Assembly: GCA_963712115.1 (NCBI GenBank)
Contig: CAVQGX010000059.1
Span: 1-28,383, forward strand
Direction: 5' to 3'
Source of the DNA: an uncultured delta proteobacterium
GTDB taxonomy: Bacteria; Desulfobacterota; Syntrophobacteria; BM002
DNA: 28,383 nt
In this document: positions 4,870-19,138 of the stretch, one piece after another
Layout of the letters: each line of letters starts with the position of its first letter
How positions within the stretch are numbered: the first letter of the stretch is position 1
Made by a program: the position numbers and the translations under genes
Notes under the pieces: model-generated
Database searches by the model: none
What the model saw: the letters and a program-made list of their open reading frames with translations, nothing else
What the model was told of the DNA's origin: nothing

Positions 4870-7203
4870 TCAGCCTAACGGATCATTCTCCACCAGATCC
4901 CAGATTCCGCAAGGGCAGGCTGCAGCGCAAAAACCACAGCCAATACAAAGATCGGGATCTACTAGCATTTCCAAACCGTTTTCCTCTTCCTCTTTCTTGG
5001 AGATGGCCCCCTTGGGACAGATGGTTATGCAGACGCCGCAATCACGGCATGATCCGCAGGAAGAGCACTCCGTGGCACAATGTTCAATGGACTCGAAGCT
5101 CTGCAAGCGGGGGTCGAAGTATTCCAGCTTGATCCGGGAGCGATCAATGATTTGTCGGGTGTCTCCCCGAGGTCGCTTTCCTCCCAGGATGTCGTTTATG
5201 GCCTGGGCCGCGGTGCGCCCGGCGCCGATGGCATCGGTGAGAAGCCCAAGCTTTACCGCATCGCCCAGGGCAAATATCTGGGGATCCGTGGTCTGAAAGA
5301 TGTCATTAACCTCAATAAAGCCGTTCTGGGTTCTCACCGTTTTTGGAAGAAAATCCACATCAGGCTGATCTCCAATGGATATGATCACGGTGTCGGCTGG
5401 AATAACTTCACCGCTTGTTAGTTCTACGCCATCTGCGGTGATTTCCTTGGTAAAGCATGGCCAGCGAAACTTGGCGCCAATTTCTTCCGCTGCCTCTCGT
5501 TCAGCACCGAAAGATAAAGGTGTCTGAATATCAATGAGGGTGATGTCCTCTGCGCCCAGCCTGTGTGCCTCTGTAGCCGCGTCACAACCCACATTTCCCG
5601 CCCCGATTACTACTACCCTTTTTCCGACCTTGGCCTCGCCAGCCTTGCTCTGCCGGAGAAACTGGAGAGCCGGAATCATCCTCTCTTTGCCAGGAACGGG
5701 GAGGATACGAGGTTTTTGCGCTCCCACAGCAATAACTACGAAATCGTAGTCCTCTTTTAGCCTTTCAACCTCTTCGCTCTCCAACTTCTGTTGCAGATGT
5801 ATGTGGGGAAGAGCCTCACGGGCCCGCGCCAGTTCAGCATCTACAATTTCATCGGGAATTCGACTTCTGGGAATAAGGGAGCTTATCTTGCCCCCCAACT
5901 TTTTCTCCAGATCAAAGATAATTGCCTCGTGGCCATGTTGTCGCAGTTGCCAGGCCACAGACAGGCCGCCAGGGCCACCGCCGATAATCGCTATCTTACT
6001 CCCTGACAGGGGTGGAAGTTCAGGCAGTTTGGCCTTCAGACTTGCCTTGCCCAGACTACTCACGTCCACCGGCGTCATGCCGGCCCACTGACGGGTGCAG
6101 CCCTGCATGCAGAGGTTGGGGCAAAGGTAGCCGCAGACTGTTGCGGGAAAAGGCGTATAGGCCAGGGCCATGTCCACGGCCTCATCCACACGACCCTCCC
6201 TGATCAACCGCCAGCGGTCATGGACCGGGATACCGGTGGGACAGCTGGCCTCGCATGGGGGCATGTATGCCTGGTTTTCCCACACCGGAACATAGCGTCT
6301 GAGCTCGCCGTTGGTGATCACTGGAATAGCACTGCGGTCAAGATCGGTGAGGTCACCAATTAGTCCGCCCTTTCCAAGCTCTTGGTCCCACACCTCCTGG
6401 CAGAACTCAGTCATGGAGCGCCGGGCTGCAAAACCCCTTTCCATGGGACTCCTGGCTTCCAGCAGTTGCCACTGCTCCAGGTTAGCAAGTTTTTTATAAA
6501 GTTTGCTTTGATTTATTCTTTCCAAGAAAACCTTGAGATTTTCTTTTAACCACTCCCAGTCCTCGTCAGCTATGGGCACTAGCTTGGCGTCGTTCTGACT
6601 GAACCCTCCATGCGGACCCCGGAAGAATATCTTGCCCGCCACCATCCCGACGCAGGGGCGGTATCCCAGAATATTCTCGGGGTTTTGGCCTTCATGGCCA
6701 CAGACCACCGCAATGCCACCAGCCATGAATTCAGCAAAATAATCCCCCACCGAACCCAAGACCCAGAGCTCCGGCGGATCAAAGCGGGGGTTGTACTTGG
6801 TCATGGTCATACCCCTGGCACCAATGTTGCCGGCAACATAGATCTTGCCCTGGGCCATGGCATTGGCGGTTCCATTGGTGGCATGCCCGTGGACGGTAAT
6901 TTCCGCCCCCGCATTGAGCCAACCCACATCATCTGAGGCTGGCCCCAGAATCTCGATGCGAGTGTTGGAAAAACCCATGGATCCAGTTCTTTGGCCGGGT
7001 GAGCCGACAATTCTGATATTTAGCGGCTCATCTCCCGCCCGCCACAAACGGCCGCCGATTCCATGCTGACCAAAGGCCTCAACTTCTATGTCGCAGTGCC
7101 CACCAGAAACGGCAGATTGGATTATCTCCTCCAACACCCGCGATTCAATCCGGTGGCCGTTTTCCATGCCGGAAATCACATAAGACCGGTCTTTCTGGTT
7201 CAT
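4870..7203 (-). CDS. Glutamate synthase GXGXG (GltB C-terminal) domain fused to a GltD-like FAD/NAD(P)H oxidoreductase and a C-terminal 2x[4Fe-4S] ferredoxin
   Basis: GXGXG beta-helix repeats (GQRTGSMG, GHATNGTANAM, GSVGDYFAEFMAGG), GltD-type Cys clusters (CEASCP, CGYLCPNLCMQGC), FAD motif IIGGGPGGL, pyridine-nucleotide motif IGAGNVG, and CRDCGVCITICP / CIGCGFCAAACP. Confidence 0.9.
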   Translation of the reverse strand: MNQKDRSYVISGMENGHRIESRVLEEIIQSAVSGGHCDIEVEAFGQHGIGGRLWRAGDEPLNIRIVGSPGQRTGSMGFSNTRIEILGPASDDVGWLNAGAEITVHGHATNGTANAMAQGKIYVAGNIGARGMTMTKYNPRFDPPELWVLGSVGDYFAEFMAGGIAVVCGHEGQNPENILGYRPCVGMVAGKIFFRGPHGGFSQNDAKLVPIADEDWEWLKENLKVFLERINQSKLYKKLANLEQWQLLEARSPMERGFAARRSMTEFCQEVWDQELGKGGLIGDLTDLDRSAIPVITNGELRRYVPVWENQAYMPPCEASCPTGIPVHDRWRLIREGRVDEAVDMALAYTPFPATVCGYLCPNLCMQGCTRQWAGMTPVDVSSLGKASLKAKLPELPPLSGSKIAIIGGGPGGLSVAWQLRQHGHEAIIFDLEKKLGGKISSLIPRSRIPDEIVDAELARAREALPHIHLQQKLESEEVERLKEDYDFVVIAVGAQKPRILPVPGKERMIPALQFLRQSKAGEAKVGKRVVVIGAGNVGCDAATEAHRLGAEDITLIDIQTPLSFGAEREAAEEIGAKFRWPCFTKEITADGVELTSGEVIPADTVIISIGDQPDVDFLPKTVRTQNGFIEVNDIFQTTDPQIFALGDAVKLGLLTDAIGAGRTAAQAINDILGGKRPRGDTRQIIDRSRIKLEYFDPRLQSFESIEHCATECSSCGSCRDCGVCITICPKGAISKKEEEENGLEMLVDPDLCIGCGFCAAACPCGIWDLVENDPLG

Positions 7204-7246
7204 AGCATTATCTCCGAAACAAATACTTAATAGTTAGTAACCAAAC

Positions 7247-7268
7247 AGCATAGGGCATAGAGCATAGA
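7247..7268 (+). repeat. Heptamer array (GCATAGR)x3, left arm flanking the four-helix-bundle gene
   Basis: AGCATAGGGCATAGAGCATAGA; reverse-complementary to the array at 7705-7762. Confidence 0.85.
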
Positions 7269-7294
7269 GAAAAAAAACAGAACTGTTTGGTGTG

Positions 7295-7648
7295 TCATAA
7301 AGTGTATTGGAAACTAGTAATTTGTCGGCATAAGCTATCGAGCCGATCTAATAAAGAATCCATAGTCTCGTTGTTTATAAGCTCTCTCGTCTCCAATAAA
7401 ATGACAATATTAGCGTTCTCGTATGTGGACCTTCGTGCAATGTCCAGGAAACGTCTGAACTCTTTACTTGAAGAAGAACCTGAGCCTTCAGATATGTTAT
7501 TTGACATGGACATTCCGGAGCCCCTAAGCTGGTCGGCAAAACGGTATAATCATTTCCTTTCAAGCTCATCTGCAATATCAAAGAGTTCATTAGCTATTTC
7601 GATTGCCAACTGCCAGATTCGTAGATCTTGAAATCTAAATTTTGCCAT
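7295..7648 (-). pseudogene. Four-helix-bundle protein (23S rRNA intervening-sequence protein family) with an in-frame TGA at codon 33
   Basis: Manual translation: MAKFRFQDLRIWQLAIEIANELFDIADELERK*LYRFADQLRGSGMSMSNNISEGSG...KEFRRFLDIARRSTYE...ITSFQYTL (117 codons). Matches the family pattern F.DL..WQ.A...QLR....S...NI.EG...EF..FL.IA..S..E. TGA at 7550-7552. Confidence 0.9.
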
Positions 7649-7704
7649 GGTTCTGTGCCCCTTTCGTCTGCTAGAGAGTTTAACTATGCGCCTTTAAGTT
7701 TTGT

Positions 7705-7762
7705 CCCTATGCCCAATGCTCTATGCCCTATGCCCTATGCTCTTTGCCCTATGCTCTATGCC
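7705..7762 (+). repeat. Heptamer array (CYCTATG)x8, right arm flanking the four-helix-bundle gene
   Basis: CCCTATG CCCAATG CTCTATG CCCTATG CCCTATG CTCTTTG CCCTATG CTCTATG. Confidence 0.9.
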
Positions 7763-7780
7763 TAATCGCCACAAGCTTGA

Positions 7781-9415
7781 CTAGACGACGAAACTTATGC
7801 TTAACCGCTCGGCCGCTGGTTTATCGTTGATTCCAATGGCATCGGACATGCCAATGGGCAGGGAGGTCGAGCGGCCCAGGGGCGCCAGAATCTTCCTCAG
7901 CTCGGTGTCAAAGGAGAGAAACACATCCACCACTCTTTCCGCCACCTTTTCCGGATCCAGACGGCGATATAACCGTGGGTCCTGGGAGGTGATGCCCTTG
8001 GGGCAGAGGCCAACATTACAGAGATTACAGCGGTCGGATTCCGAGCCAATGCAGCCAGCAGCGGCCTGCATAATGTATTTGCCAATCTGCACCGCACTTG
8101 CTCCCAGCATAATGAGGGCGGCGGCATTGGCTGCCAGGTTACCTTGTTTTCCCACACCACCTGCGGCAATCAGCGGAATCTCGTTCTGCATTCCCACCTT
8201 GACCAGGTTCAGATAACAGTCGCGAATATTGCTGGCAATGGGGTATCCCATGTGATTCATGGAAACGTTGTAGGCTGCTCCGGTACCACCATCTTCACCA
8301 TCAATGCAGAGGGCGGCAGCATAGGGATTCCGGGTCAAATTATTGAGAACCGCAAGTGCAGTGGAGGTACCAGAAATCTTTGGATAGACAGGCACCCGAA
8401 AACCCCAGGCCATATACATTGACTGGATCATCTTAGCCACTGATTCTTCGATGGAGTACTTGGTCTGGTGCGTGGGCGGACTGGGAAGACTCACGCCAGC
8501 GGGAACCCCCCGTATAGCAGCGATAAGGTTGTTCACCTTGTACCACATTAACAGGCCGCCATCGCCGGGCTTGGCCCCCTGGCCGTATTTGATTTCCACC
8601 GCACAGGGGTCTTCCTTCATATCCGGCAAGGCATGGATGATCTCATCCCAGCCGAAATAACCGCTGGCAATCTGCAAAATTGTGTACTTCAAAAAGCGGG
8701 AGCGCAACAGTCTCGGGGGGCATCCCCCTTCGCCAGTGCACATACGGACCGGCATCCCCAGCTCCTCATTGAGGTAGGCCACGCCCATTTGCAATCCTTC
8801 CCACATGTTGGGAGAAAGGGCCCCGAAGGACATGGAGCCAATCATCAGGGGATAAATCTCTCGCACCGGCGGGATCCAACCTTGTTCCCTCTGCAGCCGA
8901 ATGTTTTCCTCGGCTGGAAGAATGCGCCCCAGAAGTGTCCGCAGCTCAAATTCATGGCGCCCTGCGTCGAGAGCGGGGTCAGTGAGCATGGAGATTCTGG
9001 TAAACTTGATTTGATCCAGAATGCCGCCCACCACATTCCTGCGACCCCCACGCCGGCGCGGTTGACCTCCCCGGTCGATGTGGTATTTGAGCTTGTCCGC
9101 TTCGTCGTTTCGGTAAACCATTATGCATTCGTTGGGGCAGACCATGGAGCACATGCCGCAGCCGACACAAGCATAAGCAGGGTCGGTCTTCTGCCTGATG
9201 CCATAGAAGACCTTGTAGACATTGGAGGGCTCTCTATCCAACCCCATGGGGGTTTGCACCAGCCTCTGGCGATGGACCCCCAGGTCAATGGCATGAACCG
9301 GGCAGACGGCGGTGCAGCGCCCGCACAAGCTGCATTTATCCTTTTGCCAAAGGATCTGCCAAGGCAAATCTTTGGGGCTTAGTGTTGAAGGGGTAATAGT
9401 TCCGTTTGCCGACAT
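7781..9415 (-). CDS. Glutamate synthase FMN-binding subunit (GltB2-type) with an N-terminal 2x[4Fe-4S] ferredoxin
   Basis: CSLCGRCTAVCP and CVGCGMCSMVCP; MSFGALS, TGEGG, QIASGYFG, EIKYGQGAKPGDGGLL, DGEDGGTGA; Fe-S motif C...CNLCNVGLCPKGITSQ. Confidence 0.93.
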   Translation of the reverse strand: MSANGTITPSTLSPKDLPWQILWQKDKCSLCGRCTAVCPVHAIDLGVHRQRLVQTPMGLDREPSNVYKVFYGIRQKTDPAYACVGCGMCSMVCPNECIMVYRNDEADKLKYHIDRGGQPRRRGGRRNVVGGILDQIKFTRISMLTDPALDAGRHEFELRTLLGRILPAEENIRLQREQGWIPPVREIYPLMIGSMSFGALSPNMWEGLQMGVAYLNEELGMPVRMCTGEGGCPPRLLRSRFLKYTILQIASGYFGWDEIIHALPDMKEDPCAVEIKYGQGAKPGDGGLLMWYKVNNLIAAIRGVPAGVSLPSPPTHQTKYSIEESVAKMIQSMYMAWGFRVPVYPKISGTSTALAVLNNLTRNPYAAALCIDGEDGGTGAAYNVSMNHMGYPIASNIRDCYLNLVKVGMQNEIPLIAAGGVGKQGNLAANAAALIMLGASAVQIGKYIMQAAAGCIGSESDRCNLCNVGLCPKGITSQDPRLYRRLDPEKVAERVVDVFLSFDTELRKILAPLGRSTSLPIGMSDAIGINDKPAAERLSISFVV

Positions 9416-10509
9416 GTTTCAACCTCCCGCCGATCAGGGCGAATTATGGCAGTGTCTAAATGCATTGGCTGAAAGTCTTGGCTTTTATCCCGATCGGGAA
9501 TTGCCGCATCCAGACCACACATTTCCGATGAGATGGCGTAAAGACCTGGTTTACCCCCCACCACACCCGGCCGCAGTTTCTTCCGGTCCTGAACAATAAA
9601 TAAAGTTTTGTCCGGCAGGCATCCCATCACACAGTTGGGCCCATCTATGATCATTCTTCTGCAAGTGTGCTTTAACTGCTTGAGGAAAGCTGCATTGGGA
9701 TGGTTTTCCAAATCCTGATCCTGAAGGGGGGTTATTAAATGCTTGTACATCTCGATTCCCAGTCCCAACCTGTAGTGGAGAAAGTGGAGGATGTGGGTGA
9801 AGACTTCCGAATCTGATTGATAGCCCATGTAACCTGGGAATCCCCGCGAGGTAAGAAACTCCCTAATTGGGATAAAGGCGGTGTTTTCGCCGTTGGTCAT
9901 GGTGGCAATCCCTTGGATAAAGAAAGGGTGGCAGGCATAGAGATTTATGGCGTAGTTGGTATTCTGCCGTCCCTGGGCCAGCATGACCCTGGCCTGGAGT
10001 TCTTTGCGATCGAGTTGTAGATATTCAGCCACGGTCATGGGATCGCCAATTTCCTTGATCATGATCACGTCGGGCCAAAAGCTGTAAACAATCATGTCCT
10101 CAGCTTCTTCTCCCATGCGCCGAAGTTGAAGGCGGATCATCAGCAACCGATGCTTTATTTCAGCATCGCTCAGCCCTTCCCAGTCCTCGGGTAACTCATA
10201 AGCCCGGACGAGATAGATGTCCCGTTTGGGAACTCCGTAAGGTGGCCTCTTGGGAATCTTGATGGAGATCTTGTACTTGGTCATGAAACCAACATCCATC
10301 ATGAACCGATCCAGCTTCTTCAAGCCTTCATTGCTGAAGATGCCAGAGAGGATGGGAGCACCATCCAACTCTTCAAAGGGCCCTCCAAGATCAGAAAAAA
10401 AGAGGCCCACCCCGGAACCATCATGCCCCTCCCTCATCACATCCAGTGCTTGGATGGCCATCATGGGAGACTGGGGTTCATCGCTAGTGATTGCAAATAA
10501 ACGGCACAT
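9379..10509 (-). CDS. Glutamate synthase class II glutamine amidotransferase subunit (GltB1-type)
   Basis: N-terminal nucleophile Cys (MCRL), DGSG, QGRQNTN, CHPF, NGEN, SDSE, DGP, DRKKLRP; SD GGGAGG upstream; overlaps the next gene by 37 nt. Confidence 0.92.
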   Translation of the reverse strand: MCRLFAITSDEPQSPMMAIQALDVMREGHDGSGVGLFFSDLGGPFEELDGAPILSGIFSNEGLKKLDRFMMDVGFMTKYKISIKIPKRPPYGVPKRDIYLVRAYELPEDWEGLSDAEIKHRLLMIRLQLRRMGEEAEDMIVYSFWPDVIMIKEIGDPMTVAEYLQLDRKELQARVMLAQGRQNTNYAINLYACHPFFIQGIATMTNGENTAFIPIREFLTSRGFPGYMGYQSDSEVFTHILHFLHYRLGLGIEMYKHLITPLQDQDLENHPNAAFLKQLKHTCRRMIIDGPNCVMGCLPDKTLFIVQDRKKLRPGVVGGKPGLYAISSEMCGLDAAIPDRDKSQDFQPMHLDTAIIRPDRREVETCRQTELLPLQH

Positions 10510-10550
10510 GTTTTTTGTTCCTCCCTATAAATGAATAAATCCGAAACCAA

Positions 10551-10658
10551 TTTAGGAATTCAGGAATTAGGGAATTCAGGGATTGGACTGCTCTGCACAT
10601 GGAGCCTCATTGACCTTTTAGTAATTCCTCAATTCCTTAATACCTCAATCCCTAAATC
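10551..10658. repeat. Inverted octamer arrays in the glutamate synthase leader
   Basis: TTTAGGAATTCAGGAATTAGGGAATTCAGGGATT facing AATTCCTCAATTCCTTAATACCTCAATCCCTAAA; 8-nt period, complementary arms. Confidence 0.8.
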
Positions 10659-10860
10659 ATTGCCCTTGTAATAAAACGTTCGCTCTGATGAAACTCATGG
10701 GTCATCACAGCTTCAGACTATGTCTAGTTAATATCTGGGAACTGATTGAGGCAGGAACTTCCTTGGTCCGCTTCTATGATCTGGCCTGGATTGAGGTTCA
10801 GAATCTCGCCGTTGAAACTCGGGCCGTCATCCGATCTGTCTTCGTTGACAAGTTGTGGGT

Positions 10861-10890
10861 ACTATATCAGAAATAGTTCACCAATTTCAA
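10861..10890 (-). promoter_or_regulatory. Putative sigma70 promoter of the glutamate synthase operon
   Basis: Minus strand TTGAAA-N18-TATAGT with an extended -10 (TGn). Confidence 0.5.
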
Positions 10891-10950
10891 CAAAAAAGAT
10901 GTAATATATATTTCAAAAAGTAAATTTACTTGGAGGATATGTTTCACTAA

Positions 10951-11111
10951 GCTCACTCCGTTCGCAGCATAGAGCATAGAGCATGGAGCATAGGGTATGG
11001 ATTTAGGAGCAAGGAGTCAGAATCCAGAATTAAGGAGTTAGATTGTTGGGGATTTTGGATTTAAAATTCTGCAATTCGAAATTTTCGGCCTTGGCCTTGC
11101 GCCCTGAGCCC
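10951..11111. repeat. Composite heptamer-arm intergenic element
   Basis: (GCATRGA)x4, GAGTCAGAATCCAGAATT, GATTTT/AATT arrays and a GCCTTG-type arm; begins with GCTCACT..GTTCGC, as at 1384. Confidence 0.7.
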
Positions 11112-11126
11112 TATAACTGACAGTGC

Positions 11127-11155
11127 TTGACGGAGTCATCTAAATCCAGTAGGTT
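11127..11155 (+). promoter_or_regulatory. Putative sigma70 promoter of the XRE-cupin regulator
   Basis: TTGACG-N17-TAGGTT ending 45 nt before the ATG. Confidence 0.5.
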
Positions 11156-11200
11156 CGATGGAATCTCAGTCTTAGGACCTGTTAAACAAAGGAAAGACCG

Positions 11201-12505
11201 ATGGTGTCAAAATCACTGGAAACACAGCGTGTGGCCTCGGGTGTGAGCCAGTTAGATCGGCTTTTGGGGGGCCTTTACATCGGCGACAACGTGGTTTGGC
11301 ATGATGATGCCGGTAGCCTTGCCTCCGTTTTTTGTCTCAATTTTATTCAGGCATCGCAGGCCCAAAACAAGCCCCTAATCTATGTGACCTTTGACCGCTC
11401 ACCTAAGAATCTCTTAGACAAGCTAGGACCTTTAGGTGAAAATCCCAATCTTACCATCTTGGATTGTTTTACCTACGGTAAGGGTGCCGGTTCTCCGATT
11501 TTCCTCAAATTTTATGAGGAAGTCGAGTCCGAATGCCAGATCATACAAGTAGAAGAGCCGCGCGATATGGAACACTTCATGGACACCCTCTATGGTGTTC
11601 ATGCCACAATGGAAGGAGACGTTCGCTTTGTCTTCGAAAGTATAACTGGCATGCAAGAGCTCTGGGGTGGAGAAGAACATATAGTTAATTTCTACTCCCA
11701 TTCCTGTCCGAGACTCTACGAACTGAATACCATTGCTTACTGGATATTAGAGAAGAGTGCCCATTCGCCTCGACTGAGAGCCCAGATCAATCAGATTGCT
11801 CAGGTGGCAATAGATCTGGCAATCAAAAGAGGGACTACATCACTGACCATTTTGAAAGCTGAGAAGCGAAGCCTGGAAAATCAGCACAAGCCGCACAATT
11901 ATTGGACCAAAGATCTGACTGTAACTTTTGATGATGAAAGGCGCACCTCGCGCCGTGTTGATTTTGGCTTGCGTCTCAAGGAGCTTCGCAGCAAAAGAGG
12001 GTTGTCGCAGACCGAGCTCGCCAAGCTAGTTGGAGTCACACCCAGTACTATTTCCCAGGTTGAGAGCAACTTGATTTACCCTTCTTTGCCGGCTCTTATG
12101 AAAATGGCGGAAGTGCTCTCTGTGGAAATAAGCTCTTTTTTTCAAGAACAAGCGGAACCTAAGAAGCGTCTTATCTTTACTGCAGCCGAAGCAGTGGAAG
12201 TAAAGTTCCCCGATCTGCCTGAAGGGGCAGTCCTGGCAAGACTGTTGTTACCGGTTGATTTTGATCCCAAGGCCGAACCTTATTTAATTGAGATTTCGCC
12301 CAAGGAAAAGCTTCCTTCTCATTTTTTCATTCACAAAGGTGAAGAGTTGGGATACCTGCTCTCTGGCAGATTGCAGGTGAAATTAGAAAAGTCGGCTTAC
12401 AGCCTTCGTGCGGGGGATGTAATCTACCTCACCTCGGAAATGCCTACCCAGTGGGAGAATCCCGGCCCAGGTGTGGCCAAGCTTCTTTGGATCAAGGTGA
12501 AATGA
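11201..12505 (+). CDS. Transcriptional regulator: KaiC/RecA-like domain with degenerate Walker A + XRE HTH + cupin
   Basis: SGVSQLDRLLGGL..G start typical of KaiC/RadA; YVTFD, ILDCF, RFVFESIT; HTH RLKELRSKRGLSQTELAKLVGVTPSTISQVE...PSL; cupin HKGEELGYLLSG...GDVIY...WENPG. Confidence 0.88.
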   Translation: MVSKSLETQRVASGVSQLDRLLGGLYIGDNVVWHDDAGSLASVFCLNFIQASQAQNKPLIYVTFDRSPKNLLDKLGPLGENPNLTILDCFTYGKGAGSPIFLKFYEEVESECQIIQVEEPRDMEHFMDTLYGVHATMEGDVRFVFESITGMQELWGGEEHIVNFYSHSCPRLYELNTIAYWILEKSAHSPRLRAQINQIAQVAIDLAIKRGTTSLTILKAEKRSLENQHKPHNYWTKDLTVTFDDERRTSRRVDFGLRLKELRSKRGLSQTELAKLVGVTPSTISQVESNLIYPSLPALMKMAEVLSVEISSFFQEQAEPKKRLIFTAAEAVEVKFPDLPEGAVLARLLLPVDFDPKAEPYLIEISPKEKLPSHFFIHKGEELGYLLSGRLQVKLEKSAYSLRAGDVIYLTSEMPTQWENPGPGVAKLLWIKVK

Positions 12506-12507
12506 GG

Positions 12508-12860
12508 CAAAGGGCATAGAGCATAGGGCATAGAGAAATACAGCTGGCAGAAAAAGCTATCTAACCGCAGAGTACGCAGAGGTCGCAGAGAAGATCTAAT
12601 TCAGAACCACGAAGGGCACGAAGATCACGAAGAAAACAATCGCTTAAAGGCAACCCGCGGAGCGGGTTGTCCCGATGGATCCCATCGGGACAAATGGGGA
12701 AGCTCTTGAGCGATCCTTAAATTTTATGATTTCTTGTCCTTTTTCGTGTACTTCGTACTTTCGTGTTTTCGTGGTTGAATTTTTTATCCGTGAAATCCGT
12801 GTGTCCCGCTTCGGCGGGACCCGTGCCTAAAAAATAATCTCTTTGTGACCTTTGTGTGGT
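12508..12860. repeat. Nested palindromic element, family C copy 1, between convergent genes
   Basis: GCATAGR, CGCAGAG and CACGAAG arrays on the left and TTCGTG arrays on the right; core stem ATCGCTTAA/TTGAGCGAT enclosing hairpins CAACCCGC-GGA-GCGGGTTG and TCCCGATG-GATCC-CATCGGGA; also GTCCCGC-TTCG-GCGGGAC. Confidence 0.85.
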
Positions 12861-12870
12861 GAGAGAGTCG

Positions 12871-13743
12871 CTACTTGGTTTTCCTGTCCCTGGGATTAGT
12901 TGAGTAAACCCCTTTTTCCTCCCAGAGAGCCTCTCGCTGGCGCAAAATACGTAGAGTCTTCCCAGGGTCCTGGATGCTCATTGCCGTGAGCAATGCGTTA
13001 ATCAGGCTGGTAGCAGCTGTAAATGATTCTATGAATGAGTCCAGCTGACAGCTTGCTGTTAGCACCCAGTGGGCGTAACTGGCTAAAGGCGAGAGGGGGG
13101 AATCGGTTATCGCTCCCACCCTAGCCCTTTTATTTCGTGAATGTTGGAGAACCTCCAAGGTAATCTGCGTATATCGGGGAAAGCTGATACCCACAACTAG
13201 GTCGGATCTTCCCAACCCCTGCAATATATCCCACATCTCTCCGTGGCCCGGTACGAGAAGTTGAGCCTGTTTGCCCAGAAAACGGAGATATGTTGCCAAT
13301 GTCAGAGCAGGCGCATGAGCTCCACGAAGTCCCACCACAAAAATCCTCTCGGCTGACTGCAGGTCCGCCACCGCTCGTTCGAAGATATCAAGTGAGAGAT
13401 TCCTCAGGGTCTGAGACAGGTTGTGAATGTCCTCTTGGAGGACCTTTACAACCACGTCGCCCGTCTGCCGCACGTGGTCAACAGTATGTTCCAGGCGGGT
13501 CACAGTGGAAAGGCGATCTTGTAAGCCCTGGCGGAACTTTCTCTGCATGCCCGGATACCCATCAAAACCCAGGGCTTGAGCCAATCGCACCACAGTGGCT
13601 TCGCTCACACCCACGTTTTGAGCGAGCTGCGAGGCCGTGAGGAAGATGGCCTCCTCGTAGTGTTCTATGATGTAGTGCATGATCCGCCGTTGGGCTGGAG
13701 TGAGACGAACTTTATTATCTACTAGGAGTTCTTGGAATGGCAT
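12871..13743 (-). CDS. MurR/RpiR-family transcriptional regulator (HTH + SIS)
   Basis: LTPAQRRIMHYI...TASQLAQNVGVSEATVVRLAQALGFDGYP; SIS domain IFVVGLRG...ISFPRYT...AITDSPLSPL. Confidence 0.95.
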   Translation of the reverse strand: MPFQELLVDNKVRLTPAQRRIMHYIIEHYEEAIFLTASQLAQNVGVSEATVVRLAQALGFDGYPGMQRKFRQGLQDRLSTVTRLEHTVDHVRQTGDVVVKVLQEDIHNLSQTLRNLSLDIFERAVADLQSAERIFVVGLRGAHAPALTLATYLRFLGKQAQLLVPGHGEMWDILQGLGRSDLVVGISFPRYTQITLEVLQHSRNKRARVGAITDSPLSPLASYAHWVLTASCQLDSFIESFTAATSLINALLTAMSIQDPGKTLRILRQREALWEEKGVYSTNPRDRKTK

Positions 13744-13759
13744 GAAGAAAATCCTTCAT
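13742..13759. promoter_or_regulatory. Palindrome over the RpiR SD and start codon; candidate operator
   Basis: ATGAAG-AAAATC-CTTCAT. Confidence 0.45.
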
Positions 13760-13821
13760 TAAAAAAATATCTTGCATTTCTACTTAACAATTTACTAGTA
13801 TTCAAGTCAAACTAAAAATAA

Positions 13822-14062
13822 ATCCAGGAGATAGAATCCAGAAGTCAGAATCCAGTAGGCAAAGAGCATAGAGAAATACAGCTGGCAGCTGACAGCTTGC
13901 AGCAGGCAGCAAGAGGAAAGCTCAAAGGGGAAGTCGTAAAAACCGTATAAGTCGTAGAAGTCGATAGATCAGCTCCTGATCCCTGACCCCCGACCCCTGG
14001 TCCCTTGCCCTGAACCTTGCGCCTTGAGCCCTGCGCCTGCTGTATACTGACTACTGGATTCT
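13822..14062. repeat. Composite heptamer/nonamer-arm element upstream of the GS-like gene
   Basis: AGAATCCAG...TCAGAATCCAGTAG at the left end and CTGACTACTGGATTCT at the right; internal GCAGCTG, AAGTCGTA, CCCTGAC and GCCTTG arrays. Confidence 0.75.
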
Positions 14063-14114
14063 TTGTGGTTCATCTAGGATAGGATCTTTATAGCGAAAGG
14101 AGTTTGTTGTCGCA

Positions 14115-15425
14115 ATGGCGAGTCTGAAACAAATAAAAGAAAAACTCAAAGGTTTGGATTCTACTAAGATTTTCTTTACCGATCTCAACGGTAGAAACCG
14201 GAGCTTGCCGGTGAATCCAGCAAACATGGACTCCATAATCAAGAAAGGGATCGGTTTCGATGGCAGCTCCATTGCCGGGATTGCCACAGTTGCTGACAGT
14301 GACCGACTGCTTGTCCCCCTTCAGGAAAGCTTCCGAGTGGTTGAATTTAAAGACGAGAAACTTGGTTTTTTCATAGGTAAGATTCAAAATGCTCAGGGAG
14401 AAAGATCAAAATCTGATCCCCGGGCCGTACTGGAGAATATTGTAGCCCAGGCTGAATCAGAGTTCGGCTGCAGATTCCTTCTGGGTCCAGAACACGAGTT
14501 TTTCTTGCTAACCTCTGACTGTTTCGGTGAGAATATTCACTCTGACAGCGCCGGCTATTTTCATTGCGACCCCCACGACAAGGGAGAGGTGGTAAGGAAG
14601 AGGATTGTTGAAGTTTTGGACAAGTGCGGCATCAAGTTCGAGAAAGCACACCATGAGGTTACTGCCTCACAGCATGAGATAAACCTGGAGTGTCTGGATC
14701 CTTTGGGAGCTGCCGATAGAACCGTGCTCTTCAATTACGTAACTCAAAAAGTGGCAGCGGAAAACGGCCTGCACGCCACTTTCATGCCCAAGCCTTTTGA
14801 TGGACAAAACAGAAATGCCTTTCATATCCATCTTTCCATGATGGATAAGAGGGGGAAGAATTTGTTCTACCAGGCAAAGGCAAAGCATAATTTAAGTAAG
14901 ACCGCCCGCCAGTTCATGGGTGGTATCATTAAATATGCCAGGGAGACCTCCATTGTAATGGCATCTACTTTCAATTCCTATAAGGCCTACGTGGTCGAGA
15001 GGGAGGCTCCCGTGGTGCGTGGTTGGGGCCTGAAAAACAGAAGCTCCATGGTTAGAGTCCCTTACGCCAGCAGTACGGAGAGTACCAGAATAGAGCTGAG
15101 AAACCCTGATCCCACCGGTAATCCTTACCTGCAAATGGCAGTACTGATTGGTATGGGCCTTCACGGTATAAAAGAGAACCTTGACTGTGGCCAGCCAGAT
15201 ATGGGCAGCACATACAAAGCAAGAAGAAAATACCGCGTCTGGGACAAGAGATATCTTCCCAAGTCCATGTTCGAGGCTCTGGCGGAAGCGGAAAAGAGTA
15301 AATTTCTCAGAGAGTTACTGGGAGAGCGGGTATACAGCAATTACATGGCTATCAAGATAGCAGACTGGGAAGATCACAGAACCCATGTTACGCCGAGAGA
15401 GCACAGTAAGTATCTGAGTATGTGA
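14115..15425 (+). CDS. glnA: Glutamine synthetase type I family protein with an altered glutamate-binding site
   Basis: GFDGSSI, DPR, GPEHEFF, GYF, HHEV..SQHEI, FMPKP, HIHLS, EAP, NRS..VRVP, RIELRNPDP are present; NGSG is replaced by NRNA and SYKRL by SYKAY. The family is secure, the substrate is not. Confidence 0.88.
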   Translation: MASLKQIKEKLKGLDSTKIFFTDLNGRNRSLPVNPANMDSIIKKGIGFDGSSIAGIATVADSDRLLVPLQESFRVVEFKDEKLGFFIGKIQNAQGERSKSDPRAVLENIVAQAESEFGCRFLLGPEHEFFLLTSDCFGENIHSDSAGYFHCDPHDKGEVVRKRIVEVLDKCGIKFEKAHHEVTASQHEINLECLDPLGAADRTVLFNYVTQKVAAENGLHATFMPKPFDGQNRNAFHIHLSMMDKRGKNLFYQAKAKHNLSKTARQFMGGIIKYARETSIVMASTFNSYKAYVVEREAPVVRGWGLKNRSSMVRVPYASSTESTRIELRNPDPTGNPYLQMAVLIGMGLHGIKENLDCGQPDMGSTYKARRKYRVWDKRYLPKSMFEALAEAEKSKFLRELLGERVYSNYMAIKIADWEDHRTHVTPREHSKYLSM

Positions 15426-15462
15426 TTTCACCGATGTGAGATGAATTATCGCATAGCGTTAA

Positions 15463-15569
15463 GGGCTCAAGGCGCAGGGCGACTTAGGTCATGAGGCTTC
15501 GCCGTCATTAGGTCACTACGCTACGCTGTCATTTATTGTAAGAGGTAGAGGGCCAGAAGATTGCGGATT
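15463..15569 (+). repeat. 107-bp dispersed repeat, family B copy 1
   Basis: About 100/107 identical to 19032-19138 by manual alignment; followed by a (CTCYATG)x4 arm ending at ~15612. Confidence 0.93.
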
Positions 15570-15634
15570 GCGAAAAAATTGAACTCTATGCTCCATGCTC
15601 TATGCTCTATGCTAAAACAAAGGAGAAACTCAGA

Positions 15635-16708
15635 ATGGAAGAGTGGATTGAACAATTACAGAACAGTGTAAACACACTGGAGAAACTCAAGGAATATATC
15701 AACGTTACCCCGCAGGAAGAGGAGGGTATTACCACTCTCAATACTCAGTGGGGTACGACGCCTTACTTTGCCTCTTTGATGATCCGCGATGATCCCAACT
15801 GTCCGATCAGAAAGCAGGTTGTCCCCTCAGTAAAGGAGAAAGAAAACCGCTACGGTATTCCAAACTATTTGATCTGGAAAGAAAATCGCGCCACAGATGA
15901 GATTAGACCGGACTCCATTGCCAGACAGTACTTTGACCGCATAGCCTTTACTGTCACTGACGTCTGTGCCAACTACTGCCGGCACTGTTTCCGCAAAGAA
16001 CTGGTTGTGGACCGAGATCTCAAGCTGAGAATGGACGTAGAAGAAGGTCTCGATTGGATCCGAGAACATGAAGAGATTCGCGACGTCCTCGTCACTGGTG
16101 GGGATCCTTTTATCCTCTCAGACGAAAGGATCGAATACCTCATCCGTAAGTTGCGTGAGATTCCCCATATCGAAATGATTCGTTTCGGTACCCGCACACC
16201 CATCGTGCTGCCCCACAGAATTACCCAAAGTCTGATGAAGGTGCTGAGTAAATACCACAGGGTTCCCTTGTGGGTGAACACCCAGTGCAATCATCCCAAT
16301 GAAATCACCGAAAAAACAGCCCAAGCAGTTTACGACCTTCTCTCTTGCGGGGTTAATGTGGGCAATCAGGCTGTGCTGCTAAAGGGAATCAATGACGACG
16401 TGGAGTCTTTCAGGAAGCTGCACCAAAAACTGCTCACTGTTCGGATTCGGCCTTATTATGTCTTTTATTGCGAACCGGCTCCGGGAATTGACCATTTCCG
16501 CACCCCAGTCGAGAAAGGAGCCGAACTCATTCGAGACGCCCTTCGAGGCCATACCACCGGCCTGGCCCAACCCATGTACGTCATAGCCACAAATATCGGC
16601 AAGATTCCTTTAATGCCTGACTATTACCTAGTGGATAAAAACGAGAAAGAGTACACCTTGAGGAATTACAAAGGTGAGATAACCACATTGCCGAATATTC
16701 CGGAGTGA
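15635..16708 (+). CDS. KamA-family radical-SAM/PLP 2,3-aminomutase, substrate uncertain
   Basis: CANYCRHCFR (CxxxCxxC), TGGDP, IRFGTRTP, NHP, NQAVLLKGIND, RPYY, HFRT, LRGHTTG and PLP-lysine GKIP. Start moved to ATG 15635 (SD AAGGAG 15620-15625); the ATG at 15602 lies in a heptamer repeat. Confidence 0.92.
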   Translation: MEEWIEQLQNSVNTLEKLKEYINVTPQEEEGITTLNTQWGTTPYFASLMIRDDPNCPIRKQVVPSVKEKENRYGIPNYLIWKENRATDEIRPDSIARQYFDRIAFTVTDVCANYCRHCFRKELVVDRDLKLRMDVEEGLDWIREHEEIRDVLVTGGDPFILSDERIEYLIRKLREIPHIEMIRFGTRTPIVLPHRITQSLMKVLSKYHRVPLWVNTQCNHPNEITEKTAQAVYDLLSCGVNVGNQAVLLKGINDDVESFRKLHQKLLTVRIRPYYVFYCEPAPGIDHFRTPVEKGAELIRDALRGHTTGLAQPMYVIATNIGKIPLMPDYYLVDKNEKEYTLRNYKGEITTLPNIPE

Positions 16709-16710
16709 TG

Positions 16711-17080
16711 AGGCATGGGGCATAGAGCATGGAGCAAGGGGACAGCGAGAAAGGCAGGAAATAATTAACCGCAGACGAACGCAGATGAACGCGGACGAGC
16801 GCAGACAGACCGTTTATTAACCACGAAGAACACGAAGGACACGAAGAGAAGATCGCTTAAAGGATGCATGAGAGAACCTAGAGCACAAAGATAAGCTAGC
16901 ATATTTTTGTGCTCTAGGTTCCCTCATTGGTCCCGATGATCCCATCGGGACCACCCGCGGTGCGGGTGATCTTTAAGCGATCCTTTCCTCGACTCAATCT
17001 TTTCTCACATCCTGTACATCTTGTTAATCCTGTCCAATCTCTATCTTTTCACCTGTTCGTGCTCTGCGCGACCTTAGCGG
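16711..17080. repeat. Nested palindromic element, family C copy 2, between convergent genes
   Basis: GCATRG, CGCAGA and CACGAAG arrays; perfect 12-bp stem GATCGCTTAAAG (16851-16862)/CTTTAAGCGATC (16971-16982) enclosing three hairpins. Confidence 0.85.
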
Positions 17081-17086
17081 ATAAAT

Positions 17087-17122
17087 AAAAAGAGGCCCAG
17101 CTGCGCTGGGCCTCTTTCTTTT
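17087..17122. terminator. Bidirectional intrinsic terminator
   Basis: AAAGAGGCCCAGC-TGC-GCTGGGCCTCTTT with A-rich and T-rich flanks, between convergent genes. Confidence 0.85.
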
Positions 17123-17138
17123 CTCTATTAGAACCCAA

Positions 17139-18731
17139 TTAGCTGTTCAACACTTCCATGGCTTCCTCAAGGTAGCACTCGGTGAGGAAAGGTATACCCG
17201 TGACCTTGGCGCACTCCTCGGTAAGCGACATGAGTTCTCTTCGGGTGATGGCTGGCAGTGAGAAGCACCGGGCACCAGCCAGAAGTTGTTGGAGACCCAC
17301 CCTGAGCCTGTCAGCGTAGCTGAAAATACCCACGGCCCCAAGGGGGATGTTCTTCATCTCATCCTTGCCCACGATATCAGCAACCTGCTCCCAGCATACG
17401 AAAATCTCCGCCGGGGTACTCCCAAATTCACTCACCGTCTTGGGAAGATCGCCTTTCTCAATCCATTTGGTGATGTTCTTGCCCACCATGCCGGGAATCA
17501 TCAAGGCCCGGCCCATACAAACCGCTTTCGCAAATGGCGCGCCCAGCGCCAGGGCCTTGAATATACCGTCTTCACTGGAAAATCCTCCTGCGAAAGCCAG
17601 GTCAGGAACCCTCTCGCCCTTGTCAGCCAAAATCTTGCTGAACTTGTAAGCCATGGAGTGAATGTAGAGACTGGGGATGCCCCACTCTTCCATCATTCGC
17701 CAGGGAGACATGCCCGTGCCGCCGGGTGCCCCATCAATGGTAAGCAGGTCTATTTTCGCTCTGGATCCCCACTTGATGGCCATTGCCAATTCCCGCAAAG
17801 GGTAAGCGCCTGTCTTGAGGGTGATGCGCTTAAATCCGAGTTTCCTGAGGCGATCGACCTCGGCGTAGAAATCTTCCTCGCCGATGAACCCCAGTCTACT
17901 ATGACGCTCGAATTCCTTGATGGCGCCACTAGCGAACGCTTTCTGGTGCGTAGGTGAGGAGGGGTCCGGAGTTACAATGTAGCCACGCCTCTGGAGTTCC
18001 TGAGCCCTTTCCAGGCTGTCAACTTTAATCTCGCCACCGATGCACTTGGCCCCTTGACCCCACTTGAGCTCTATGTTGTCCAGGCCGTGCTTGTCAATGA
18101 TGTACTCGGCGACACCGAGCCTGGTATCCTCAACATTCATCTGCACCAGCATTTCGCCGTAGCCTTGATGGTAGCGACGATACTGCTCAATACGCCGGTC
18201 CATATCAGGTGCATTTTTTATCTTGCCGTTCTTGTTAAGCTCCAGTGCCGGGTCGATACCGCAGACGTTCTCACCGCAGATGAGAGTGACGCCGCTAATA
18301 GCCGCGCCCACGGCGAAATGCTCCCAGTTGGCGCGGGCTATCTCTGTGGAACCCAGGGCACCGGTGAATACCGGAACCTTCATTTTAACCTTGGTGTCCC
18401 AGCCATACTCGGTTTCTGTGCTCACCGAGGGGAAAGTGGCGGTGTCCGGGTCGCCGACAACGCCTTCCGGCATGCCCCTGGCACCCATGGCGTATCCCTG
18501 GATGTTGAGATGGGAGTAATCGACGGGATAGTCCTTGTCAGCTCCCGCCGTTACCTTGCCGAAGGGACCGGGGTAGATCACCTCGCGGCCTCTAAAGGTG
18601 GATTTAAACACCTCGCAGTTCCCGCGGCAGCCGTCAGTACAGCGGGAGCAGAGGCCAGACATGGGTACCACTGATTTGGACCTGTTGAATGTTCTGGTTG
18701 CGTCATTGGCATTTGGACGTTGCAAGTTCAT
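17139..18731 (-). CDS. Stand-alone FMN-binding glutamate synthase family protein
   Basis: 530 aa; N-terminal CSRCTDGCRGNC; TGALGST, GENVCG, IELKWGQGAKCIGGE, LKTG, TIDGAPGGTGMSP, AGGFS..DGIFKALALGA, MGRA; SD AGAGGAG. Confidence 0.9.
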   Translation of the reverse strand: MNLQRPNANDATRTFNRSKSVVPMSGLCSRCTDGCRGNCEVFKSTFRGREVIYPGPFGKVTAGADKDYPVDYSHLNIQGYAMGARGMPEGVVGDPDTATFPSVSTETEYGWDTKVKMKVPVFTGALGSTEIARANWEHFAVGAAISGVTLICGENVCGIDPALELNKNGKIKNAPDMDRRIEQYRRYHQGYGEMLVQMNVEDTRLGVAEYIIDKHGLDNIELKWGQGAKCIGGEIKVDSLERAQELQRRGYIVTPDPSSPTHQKAFASGAIKEFERHSRLGFIGEEDFYAEVDRLRKLGFKRITLKTGAYPLRELAMAIKWGSRAKIDLLTIDGAPGGTGMSPWRMMEEWGIPSLYIHSMAYKFSKILADKGERVPDLAFAGGFSSEDGIFKALALGAPFAKAVCMGRALMIPGMVGKNITKWIEKGDLPKTVSEFGSTPAEIFVCWEQVADIVGKDEMKNIPLGAVGIFSYADRLRVGLQQLLAGARCFSLPAITRRELMSLTEECAKVTGIPFLTECYLEEAMEVLNS

Positions 18732-19031: not shown

Positions 19032-19138
19032 GGGCTCAAGGCGCAGGGCCTTTTGAGTCATTAGGCTTCGCCGTCATTAGGTCATTACGCTACGCTGTCA
19101 TTTATTGTAAGAGGTAGAGGGCCAGAAGATTGCGGATT
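19032..19138 (+). repeat. 107-bp dispersed repeat, family B copy 2
   Basis: Direct repeat of 15463-15569 with the last 53 bp identical; embedded in heptamer arrays spanning ~19010-19284. Confidence 0.93.

Follow-up and report, generated by a model that had tools for sequence, protein, structure and literature searches.

We describe here a glutamine synthetase (GS)-like gene and the putative 2,3-aminomutase gene downstream of it, both carried on a 28,383-nucleotide stretch of DNA from an uncultured delta proteobacterium (contig CAVQGX010000059.1, positions 1 to 28,383, assembly GCA_963712115.1), referred to below as the window. The GS-like protein, termed the ligase below, is on the strength of its sequence a conserved, uncharacterised GS variant, whose substitutions fall precisely on the residues that form the alpha-amino/alpha-carboxylate end of the glutamate site, with the predicted catalytic residues intact. 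As a tentative proposal, held at a little short of even confidence, we suggest that it serves as an accessory beta-glutamine synthetase (a beta-glutamate-ammonia ligase) and that its partner is a glutamine/beta-glutamine mutase, the two together probably making or recycling beta-glutamine, a salt-protection compound. The substrate of the ligase, the role of its Arg233 and the direction of flux are what we infer from the residue pattern, its conservation and the gene linkage set out below.

The open reading frame (ORF) of the ligase is complete and encodes 436 amino acids. Both GS domains were found above their Pfam gathering scores (Gln-synt_N, PF03951, 49.6 bits with a cut-off of 33.4; Gln-synt_C, PF00120, 331.8 bits with a cut-off of 24, E = 6e-99), and the protein thus belongs to the glutamine synthetase superfamily. 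Every NCBIfam equivalog cut-off was missed, with scores of 354.1 against 429.15 for GlnA (TIGR00653), 261 against 469.6 for type III GS/glutamate-methylamine ligase (TIGR03105) and 229 against 650 for the PuuA-type gamma-glutamylputrescine synthetase (NF045547). The closest solved structures were type I-alpha GS (GSI-alpha) enzymes (E ~2e-83). Members of the ligase family were sparse in the phylum (E <= 1e-100 in four of 400 other sampled genomes) and common in public protein sets, where they are always named 'glutamine synthetase'; one cluster of the family contains a protein labelled Candidatus Scalindua sediminis, and one hit, L017, bears the label Desulfococcaceae bacterium HSG9.

The glutamate pocket was analysed through an alignment of the query, eight family members, the other GS of this genome, E. 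coli GlnA and, as a control, E. coli PuuA. Reference positions follow the numbering of E. coli/Salmonella GS, which was confirmed beforehand on 18 reference residues, each of them lying where it should in E. coli GlnA. From the Salmonella GS literature, we take R321 to be the anchor of the glutamate alpha-carboxylate, with the glycines at 265 and 267 in the same site, D50, S53, Y179 and E327 to form the ammonium site, and the Glu, His and Arg residues listed below to have metal or phosphate/ATP roles. The original prediction had placed an arginine at G265 (14811) and an alanine at R321 (14985) and had the ammonium, metal and ATP residues kept, all of which was borne out: the codons are exactly AGA and GCC, the alignment with E. 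coli GlnA agrees, and the retained residues were all present at the GlnA positions checked. Compared with the solved GSI-alpha structures, the canonical NGSGMH has become NRNAFH and the canonical NSYKRLVPGYEAP has become NSYKAYVVEREAP. Relative to E. coli GlnA, D50, S53, E129, E131, Y179, E212, E220, N264, H269, H271, E327, R339, R344, E357 and R359 are unchanged in the ligase. The metal ligands (E129, E131, E212, E220, H269 and E357) and the phosphate/ATP residues (H271, R339, R344 and R359) were kept in the query and in 9/9 aligned family members. The ammonium pocket (D50', S53', Y179 and E327) was likewise kept in the query, with the equivalent D49, S52, Y148 and E297 present in 52/52 ligase orthologues and an Asn at the Y179 position in one of nine aligned family sequences. 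The changes common to the query and its family comprise G265R (R233 of the ligase), S266N, G267A (A235) and M268F, R321A (A291), L322Y (Y292), P324V, G325E/D and Y326R/K, and L332R (R302); in the query itself G325 is replaced by Glu and Y326 by Arg. With A291, R233 and A235, the ligase departs from the combination of an R321 anchor with glycines at 265/267 by which we recognised GlnA.

Features of the window discussed in the text, with the basis of each assignment
Feature	Position	Strand	Basis
GS-family (GSI-alpha-like) ATP-dependent carboxylate-ammonia ligase, predicted to have the alpha-end of the glutamate pocket rebuilt	14115..15425	+	Pfam, NCBIfam, structure alignments, residue table
Arg233 codon AGA (G265 position)	14811..14813	+	direct read and alignment; Arg in 52/52 orthologues
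Ala291 codon GCC (R321 position)	14985..14987	+	direct read and alignment; Ala in 52/52 orthologues
KamA-family pyridoxal phosphate (PLP)/radical S-adenosylmethionine (SAM) 2,3-aminomutase, undescribed specificity type	15602..16708	+	TIGR00238, structure 2A5H, orthologue alignment
RpiR/MurR-type regulator (HTH_6 + SIS), divergently transcribed	12871..13743	-	Pfam/NCBIfam scans
Strong terminator-like hairpin after the mutase, 13 pairs and T run	17089..17117	+	hairpin scan

The ligase shares with the type I-alpha GS of Bacillus and archaea (GlnA; solved relatives such as 8ufj, 4lnf and 8ool) its two domains, its length, the lack of a GSI-beta insertion, some 37-40% identity and the metal, ATP, phosphate and ammonium residues. 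Unlike those enzymes, however, it carries G265R, G267A, R321A, L322Y and Y326R/K, falls below the GlnA cut-off and, as an accessory copy, has a 2,3-aminomutase as its linked neighbour. The gamma-glutamyl-amine ligases (PuuA and the GlnA3/GmaS types) are, like the ligase, GS-family accessory paralogues of altered specificity, but they keep G265 and R321 and differ on the amine side, as the original prediction had it for that side. In the PuuA control, G265 and R321 were kept and D50, S53 and E327 were altered (D50P, S53V, E327Y); the ligase described here shows the reverse pattern.

R233, A235, A291 and Y292 were invariant in all 52 ligase orthologues, defined by at least 50% identity and drawn from genome and metagenome loci. 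A HMMER scan of 1.84 billion cluster representatives (50% clusters) yielded 9602 relatives, and a census of the swap was taken on the 135 full-length proteins within the best 150 of these. Positions 265 and 321 were Gly and Arg in 131 of them, Ala and Arg in two, and Arg and Ala in another two, one of which was merely 44% identical to the query; neither single-swap form (Arg/Arg or Gly/Ala) was found among these 135 nearest full-length representatives. A quick maximum-likelihood tree was built from 60 rows, and its 11 Arg/Ala rows lay on one side of a single branch, with a Shimodaira-Hasegawa-like approximate likelihood ratio (SH-aLRT) support of 98. The G265R/R321A swap is coupled, marks one clade and is not due to chance.

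Linkage of the ligase to the mutase was assessed in 14 genome loci and in 80 metagenome loci chosen through the mutase, the latter being the best 80 of at least 421 confirmed stretches that encode a relative of the mutase. The gene pair is frequent in metagenome contigs. Ligase and mutase were adjacent in 11 of the 14 genome loci, with a second KamA gene between them in one case, while two loci were cut by contig ends and one (genome G350) was without the mutase. Among the metagenome loci, a ligase of the Arg/Ala type adjoined the mutase in 52/80 (51 upstream, one downstream), a different GS lineage of 496 amino acids stood next to it in two, no GS was found beside it in 17, and nine were uninformative. 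Other flanking genes varied between loci; the mutase linkage persisted down to 57% identity, whereas the nitrogen-gene context was limited to close relatives. All five carrier genomes examined encode another, higher-scoring GS, and that of the present genome passes the GlnA equivalog (517.6 against 429.15), so that the ligase is an accessory copy beside an ordinary GS. The 496-residue lineage (L086, 125-1615; L100, 617-2107), located directly upstream of the same mutase type, is 24% identical to the query, carries N264A and an insertion of about 20 residues, and formed a long separate branch in the tree; in L100 it is preceded by a SIS-domain ORF cut by the contig end.

The neighbouring mutase scored above the KamA subfamily cut-off (TIGR00238, 286 against 199) and below the equivalogs for arginine (364 against 600), glutamate (Eam; TIGR04368, 353 against 650) and lysine 2,3-aminomutase (351 against 525). 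Its start is probably the ATG at 15635, because AAGGAG precedes that codon and the orthologues begin MEEW. Alignment against 2A5H, a solved lysine 2,3-aminomutase, the site residues of which reportedly had their roles assigned by Lepore et al. in 2005, showed that the CxxxCxxC motif, R134 and the PLP lysine K337 are kept, whereas D293 is replaced by Glu (Glu291) and D330 by Ala (Ala329), the latter with a two-residue deletion. C122/C126/C129, R131, K334 and Glu291 were found in 92/92 mutase orthologues and Ala329 in 90/92. The score, the Cys motif, the carboxylate-binding Arg and the PLP lysine identify the protein, at the level of sequence, as a member of the KamA family. The side chain of the substrate is bound by Lys in glutamate mutase and by an Asp/Asp pair in lysine mutase, and a Lys/Asn rule for Eam is said to come from Ruzicka and Frey in 2007. 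The mutase shares with Eam the KamA family, the PLP lysine, R134 and the Cys motif. The Lys of Eam-like proteins, among them a copy on contig 16 of this genome, is replaced in it by Glu; an ordinary Eam was ruled out by its score together with Glu291. A look-up of the mutase in the ESM Atlas returned generic KamA clusters alone, and no publication dealing with a glutamine 2,3-aminomutase came up in full-text literature searches.

Two further KamA genes are present in this genome. The Eam-like gene of contig 16 (L006, region 5400-12728; 611 bits against 650, Lys at the side-chain site) lies about 3.5 kb downstream of a canonical glnA, and its end extends into the start of a gene for an M20 glutamate-carboxypeptidase-like hydrolase. 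A lysine-mutase-like gene on contig 27 (502 bits against 525, Asp/Asp sites) is followed by two D-Ala-D-Ala-ligase-like ATP-grasp genes; this cluster (L007, region 5487-8870) is a possible module for beta-lysine peptides or ligation.

The partners of the mutase outside the pair were also considered. In loci without the ligase, the mutase adjoins glnHPQ-like ATP-binding cassette (ABC) transporters, and a GlnH-type binding protein was encoded within 6 kb of it in 9/80 metagenome loci. All four binding proteins scanned exceeded the curated GlnH cut-off of 303 (350, 326, 352 and 328), and six aligned GlnH-like proteins were 52-57% identical to E. coli GlnH; at the positions which we take to be its ligand contacts, D10, R75, K115, D157 and Y185 were kept in 6/6, and H156F and G119T were seen in 5/6. 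A glutamate-carboxypeptidase-like M20 hydrolase directly followed the mutase in 12/80 metagenome loci and was 38% identical to the M20 protein encoded after the Eam-like gene of this genome. GntR regulators were also among the partners, and a second, glutamate-mutase-like mutase stood beside the ligase in L029 (Lys-type), L049 and L059. Because the mutase has Glu291 rather than Lys and is linked to GlnH-type transporters and these other partners, it seems more likely to handle glutamine/beta-glutamine than glutamate, lysine or arginine.

Variants of this context were noted in several loci. In L077 (11696-12694) and L092 (11798-12802), glnQ of a GntR-mutase-glnHPQ cluster is followed by a further mutase copy, 74-76% identical, that has Glu and Asp, as against Glu and Ala, at the side-chain sites. 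A Glu/Ala-type mutase occurs together with a LivK-type ABC transporter in each of L063, L074, L079 and L103, accompanied in L063 and L074 by a class-III aminotransferase and a beta-keto-acid cleavage enzyme, in L063 also by a formamidase-type amidase, in L074, L079 and L103 by a Met-type KamA paralogue further along, and in L074 and L103 by a GntR regulator. The composition of these four clusters suggests amino-acid breakdown via beta-amino and beta-keto acids.

In the mechanism that we propose, the ligase and the radical-SAM 2,3-aminomutase would form a two-gene unit acting on glutamate, glutamine, beta-glutamate and beta-glutamine. ATP would phosphorylate a carboxylate in the ligase and ammonia would displace the phosphate. 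The alpha-amino/alpha-carboxylate end of the L-glutamate pocket appears rebuilt through G265R, G267A, R321A, L322Y and Y326R/K, such that Arg233 could take the distal carboxylate of beta-glutamate and ordinary L-glutamate would be disfavoured. The mutase would then interconvert beta-glutamine and L-glutamine, and the net use may be either to build the inert osmolyte beta-glutamine or to funnel beta-glutamate into glutamine. Beta-glutamate is abundant in marine pore waters, with which a role of the pair in uptake or salvage would fit.

A precedent exists for the proposed ligase reaction. According to a review, the GS of Methanohalophilus portucalensis converts beta-glutamate to beta-glutamine (PMC1224877), which is the reaction proposed here (beta-glutamate + NH3 + ATP -> beta-glutamine); there it is the cell's own GS, unusually good with beta-glutamate, that is described, whereas the ligase is a separate paralogue. 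The same review presents AblA/AblB, a lysine 2,3-aminomutase and a beta-lysine acetyltransferase, as the operon for the osmolyte N-epsilon-acetyl-beta-lysine, which resembles our pair as a two-gene unit of a KamA-family mutase with an enzyme neutralising a charge on a beta-amino acid. In contrast to AblAB, however, the partner here is predicted to be an ATP-dependent amide ligase and not an acetyltransferase, and the mutase is without the two lysine-binding aspartates.

How far the ligase can be assigned to beta-glutamate depends on the substrate argument and on its rivals. The original prediction had reasoned that ammonia is ligated to an acid other than L-glutamate, and in this respect it is a fair inference, since alterations are seen at the alpha end and none at the ammonium, metal and ATP residues; the adjacent 2,3-aminomutase and the conserved pairing strongly reinforce it. 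The acid would either be unlike L-glutamate at the alpha end or sit there in another way. The further step of the prediction, from a moved anchor to beta-glutamate, is not supported by the reasoning given. Being pentanedioic acids alike, alpha- and beta-glutamate have the same carboxylate spacing, so that the distal carboxylate need not move, the loss of R321 is not required for beta-glutamate, and taken alone it is no pointer to that substrate; moreover, ordinary GS is reported to accept beta-glutamate, and the formation of beta-glutamine is credited to ordinary GS, in the same review (PMC1224877). Several other observations likewise weigh against a beta-glutamate ligase. Glu291 at the side-chain site of the mutase suits glutamine better than glutamate, and a mutase working on glutamine would leave the ligase in need of a source of beta-glutamate, so that the pair would not form a linear path from common precursors. 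Only three of the five carrier genomes (G000, which is the present genome, G123 and G185) showed a glutamate-mutase-like gene of the Lys type; none was seen in the other two, G283 and G350, which are 99% and 89% complete. The assembled part of G350 has the ligase but no KamA-family gene at all, and the 496-residue GS lineage paired with the same mutase type keeps G265 and R321. The AlphaFold2 monomer of the ligase (mean predicted local distance difference test score, pLDDT, 81.6) is of low confidence in the active-site loops, with residues 227-230, 285-288 and 305-309 below 50, and yields no orientation for Arg233; the region around residue 233 is not assigned as strand in the model, and an argument from beta-strand periodicity is thus inferential. 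In its fullest form, the proposal would make the pair a dedicated beta-glutamine synthetase, with the anchoring arginine moved from 321 to 265, and an L-glutamine 2,3-aminomutase, both undescribed, a combination that we consider possible but doubtful.

The main alternative is that the ligase could be a dedicated alpha-glutamine synthetase in which Arg233 replaces Arg321 as the anchor, the mutase then converting L-glutamine to beta-glutamine. By analogy with AblAB, this would amount to a self-sufficient osmolyte module with the net reaction glutamate + NH3 + ATP -> beta-glutamine. Such a route would be linear from an abundant precursor and would require no source of beta-glutamate; glutamine as the mutase substrate is suited by Glu291 in 92/92 orthologues and by the GlnHPQ-type transporters, and the canonical G265/R321 of the other mutase-paired GS lineage and the mutase-less G350 also fit. 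We nevertheless regard it as somewhat less likely than the beta-glutamate reading, as it leaves five rebuilt, invariant alpha-end residues unexplained and duplicates an ordinary GS already present in every carrier, and as osmolyte-scale flux through the glutamine pool would be expected to disturb nitrogen sensing. Less probable again is that the ligase amidates or activates some other acid made by the mutase, such as beta-lysine, beta-arginine, beta-ornithine or an aminoadipate derivative, or that its nucleophile is not ammonia. A cationic side chain could also be bound by an acidic residue at the side-chain site of the mutase, the sister mutase copies flanking glnHPQ in L077 and L092 have Glu and Asp, the best NCBIfam score of the mutase is by a small margin that of the arginine model (364 as against 353 and 351), and a longer substrate would find space once R321 is lost. 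In contrast, however, D50, S53, Y179 and E327 of the ammonium site are all kept, the mutase is accompanied by glutamine-type transporters, GS-family ligases and glutamate-carboxypeptidase-like hydrolases and not by lysine or arginine genes, and we know of no natural product arising from amidation of a basic or longer beta-amino acid. A very improbable reading is that the ligase simply serves nitrogen assimilation as a redundant GS paralogue of the ordinary kind, with neutral substitutions and a coincidental neighbourhood. While nitrogen genes (glutamate-synthase-like, GlnD-like and GAF-ANTAR) surround the pair in the window and its closest relatives, and public sources call the protein 'glutamine synthetase', this context does not extend as far as the linkage to the mutase, the swap is invariant and coupled, and the score lies below the GlnA equivalog.

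Turning to the surroundings of the pair, the RpiR regulator stands beside it in the closest relatives only, that is, in 11 of 94 clustered loci (by set, 7/14 genome and 5/80 metagenome loci). The RpiR regulator, a TAXI binding protein and the nitrogen genes were each considered as parts of the unit and rejected, each being confined to a subset of loci. The nitrogen genes that surround the pair here and in its closest relatives are glutamate-synthase-like genes, a gene resembling GlnD and one for a GAF-ANTAR regulator; in the window these include, upstream, a split, archaeal-style glutamate-synthase-like gene set at 4870-10509 (-) and the GlnD-like gene at 1596-4163. A 434-residue protein (11201-12505, +), in which a KaiC/RecA-like ATPase domain is fused to a PuuR-like helix-turn-helix plus cupin module, is conserved near the pair in six close relatives. 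A 530-residue protein convergent on the mutase (17139-18731, -), for which a partial match to the flavin mononucleotide (FMN) domain of glutamate synthase was the only one and which had no NCBIfam match, is likewise conserved in six close relatives.

No terminator-like site was found between ligase and mutase on the plus strand. A sigma-54 promoter pattern was discarded, with 26 matches against 28.9 expected and none in the 13744-14114 leader, and an Rfam scan of 12500-17500 detected no riboswitch, its sole match being a sub-threshold small RNA at 17082-17148. The intergenic DNA at 13800-14060, 15440-15612 and 16710-16850 consists of short periodic motifs, and inverted repeats enclose both the ligase (14015-14032 with 15462-15479; 18 nucleotides, 94% complementary) and the mutase (15589-15612 with 16713-16736; 24 nucleotides, 92%). 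The sequencing runs carrying this stretch are labelled as estuary, marine sediment, mangrove and sediment metagenomes. Both genes were covered, at 90-99% likeness, by contigs from four RNA libraries of two studies, which is weak evidence of expression because RNA libraries can contain DNA; none of the contig pieces listed ran across the GS-mutase spacer. A spike in RNA depth at 15505-15611 is due to a multi-copy repeat located there. This repeat of about 70 nucleotides (15488-15555 and 19057-19129) has at least 42 copies in the genome at 86-100% identity, one of them about 26 nucleotides past the stop codon of the canonical glnA on contig 16 (20756-20822), and gave rise to a five- to ten-fold depth spike and many broken contigs in the four RNA libraries. 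Its predicted fold was no better than that of shuffled sequence (z 0.07), and it had no Rfam match.

Beta-glutamate and beta-glutamine are compatible solutes. To our knowledge, enzymes dedicated to beta-glutamine have never been identified, and the genetics of both solutes is thin. If the proposed function is correct, sediment bacteria, that is, Desulfobacterota and at least one metagenome-assembled genome protein labelled Scalindua, would gain a long-missing genetic basis for beta-glutamine metabolism, with a role either in osmolyte synthesis or in the ATP-driven salvage of beta-glutamate into glutamine. All copies of these genes carry no more specific annotation than 'glutamine synthetase' and 'lysine aminomutase family', which would mislead metabolic reconstructions of nitrogen assimilation. 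For the GS family, a substrate-anchoring arginine that is relocated in a coupled manner, and so as to define a clade, within so well-studied an enzyme would offer a clean case in which to study specificity rewiring.

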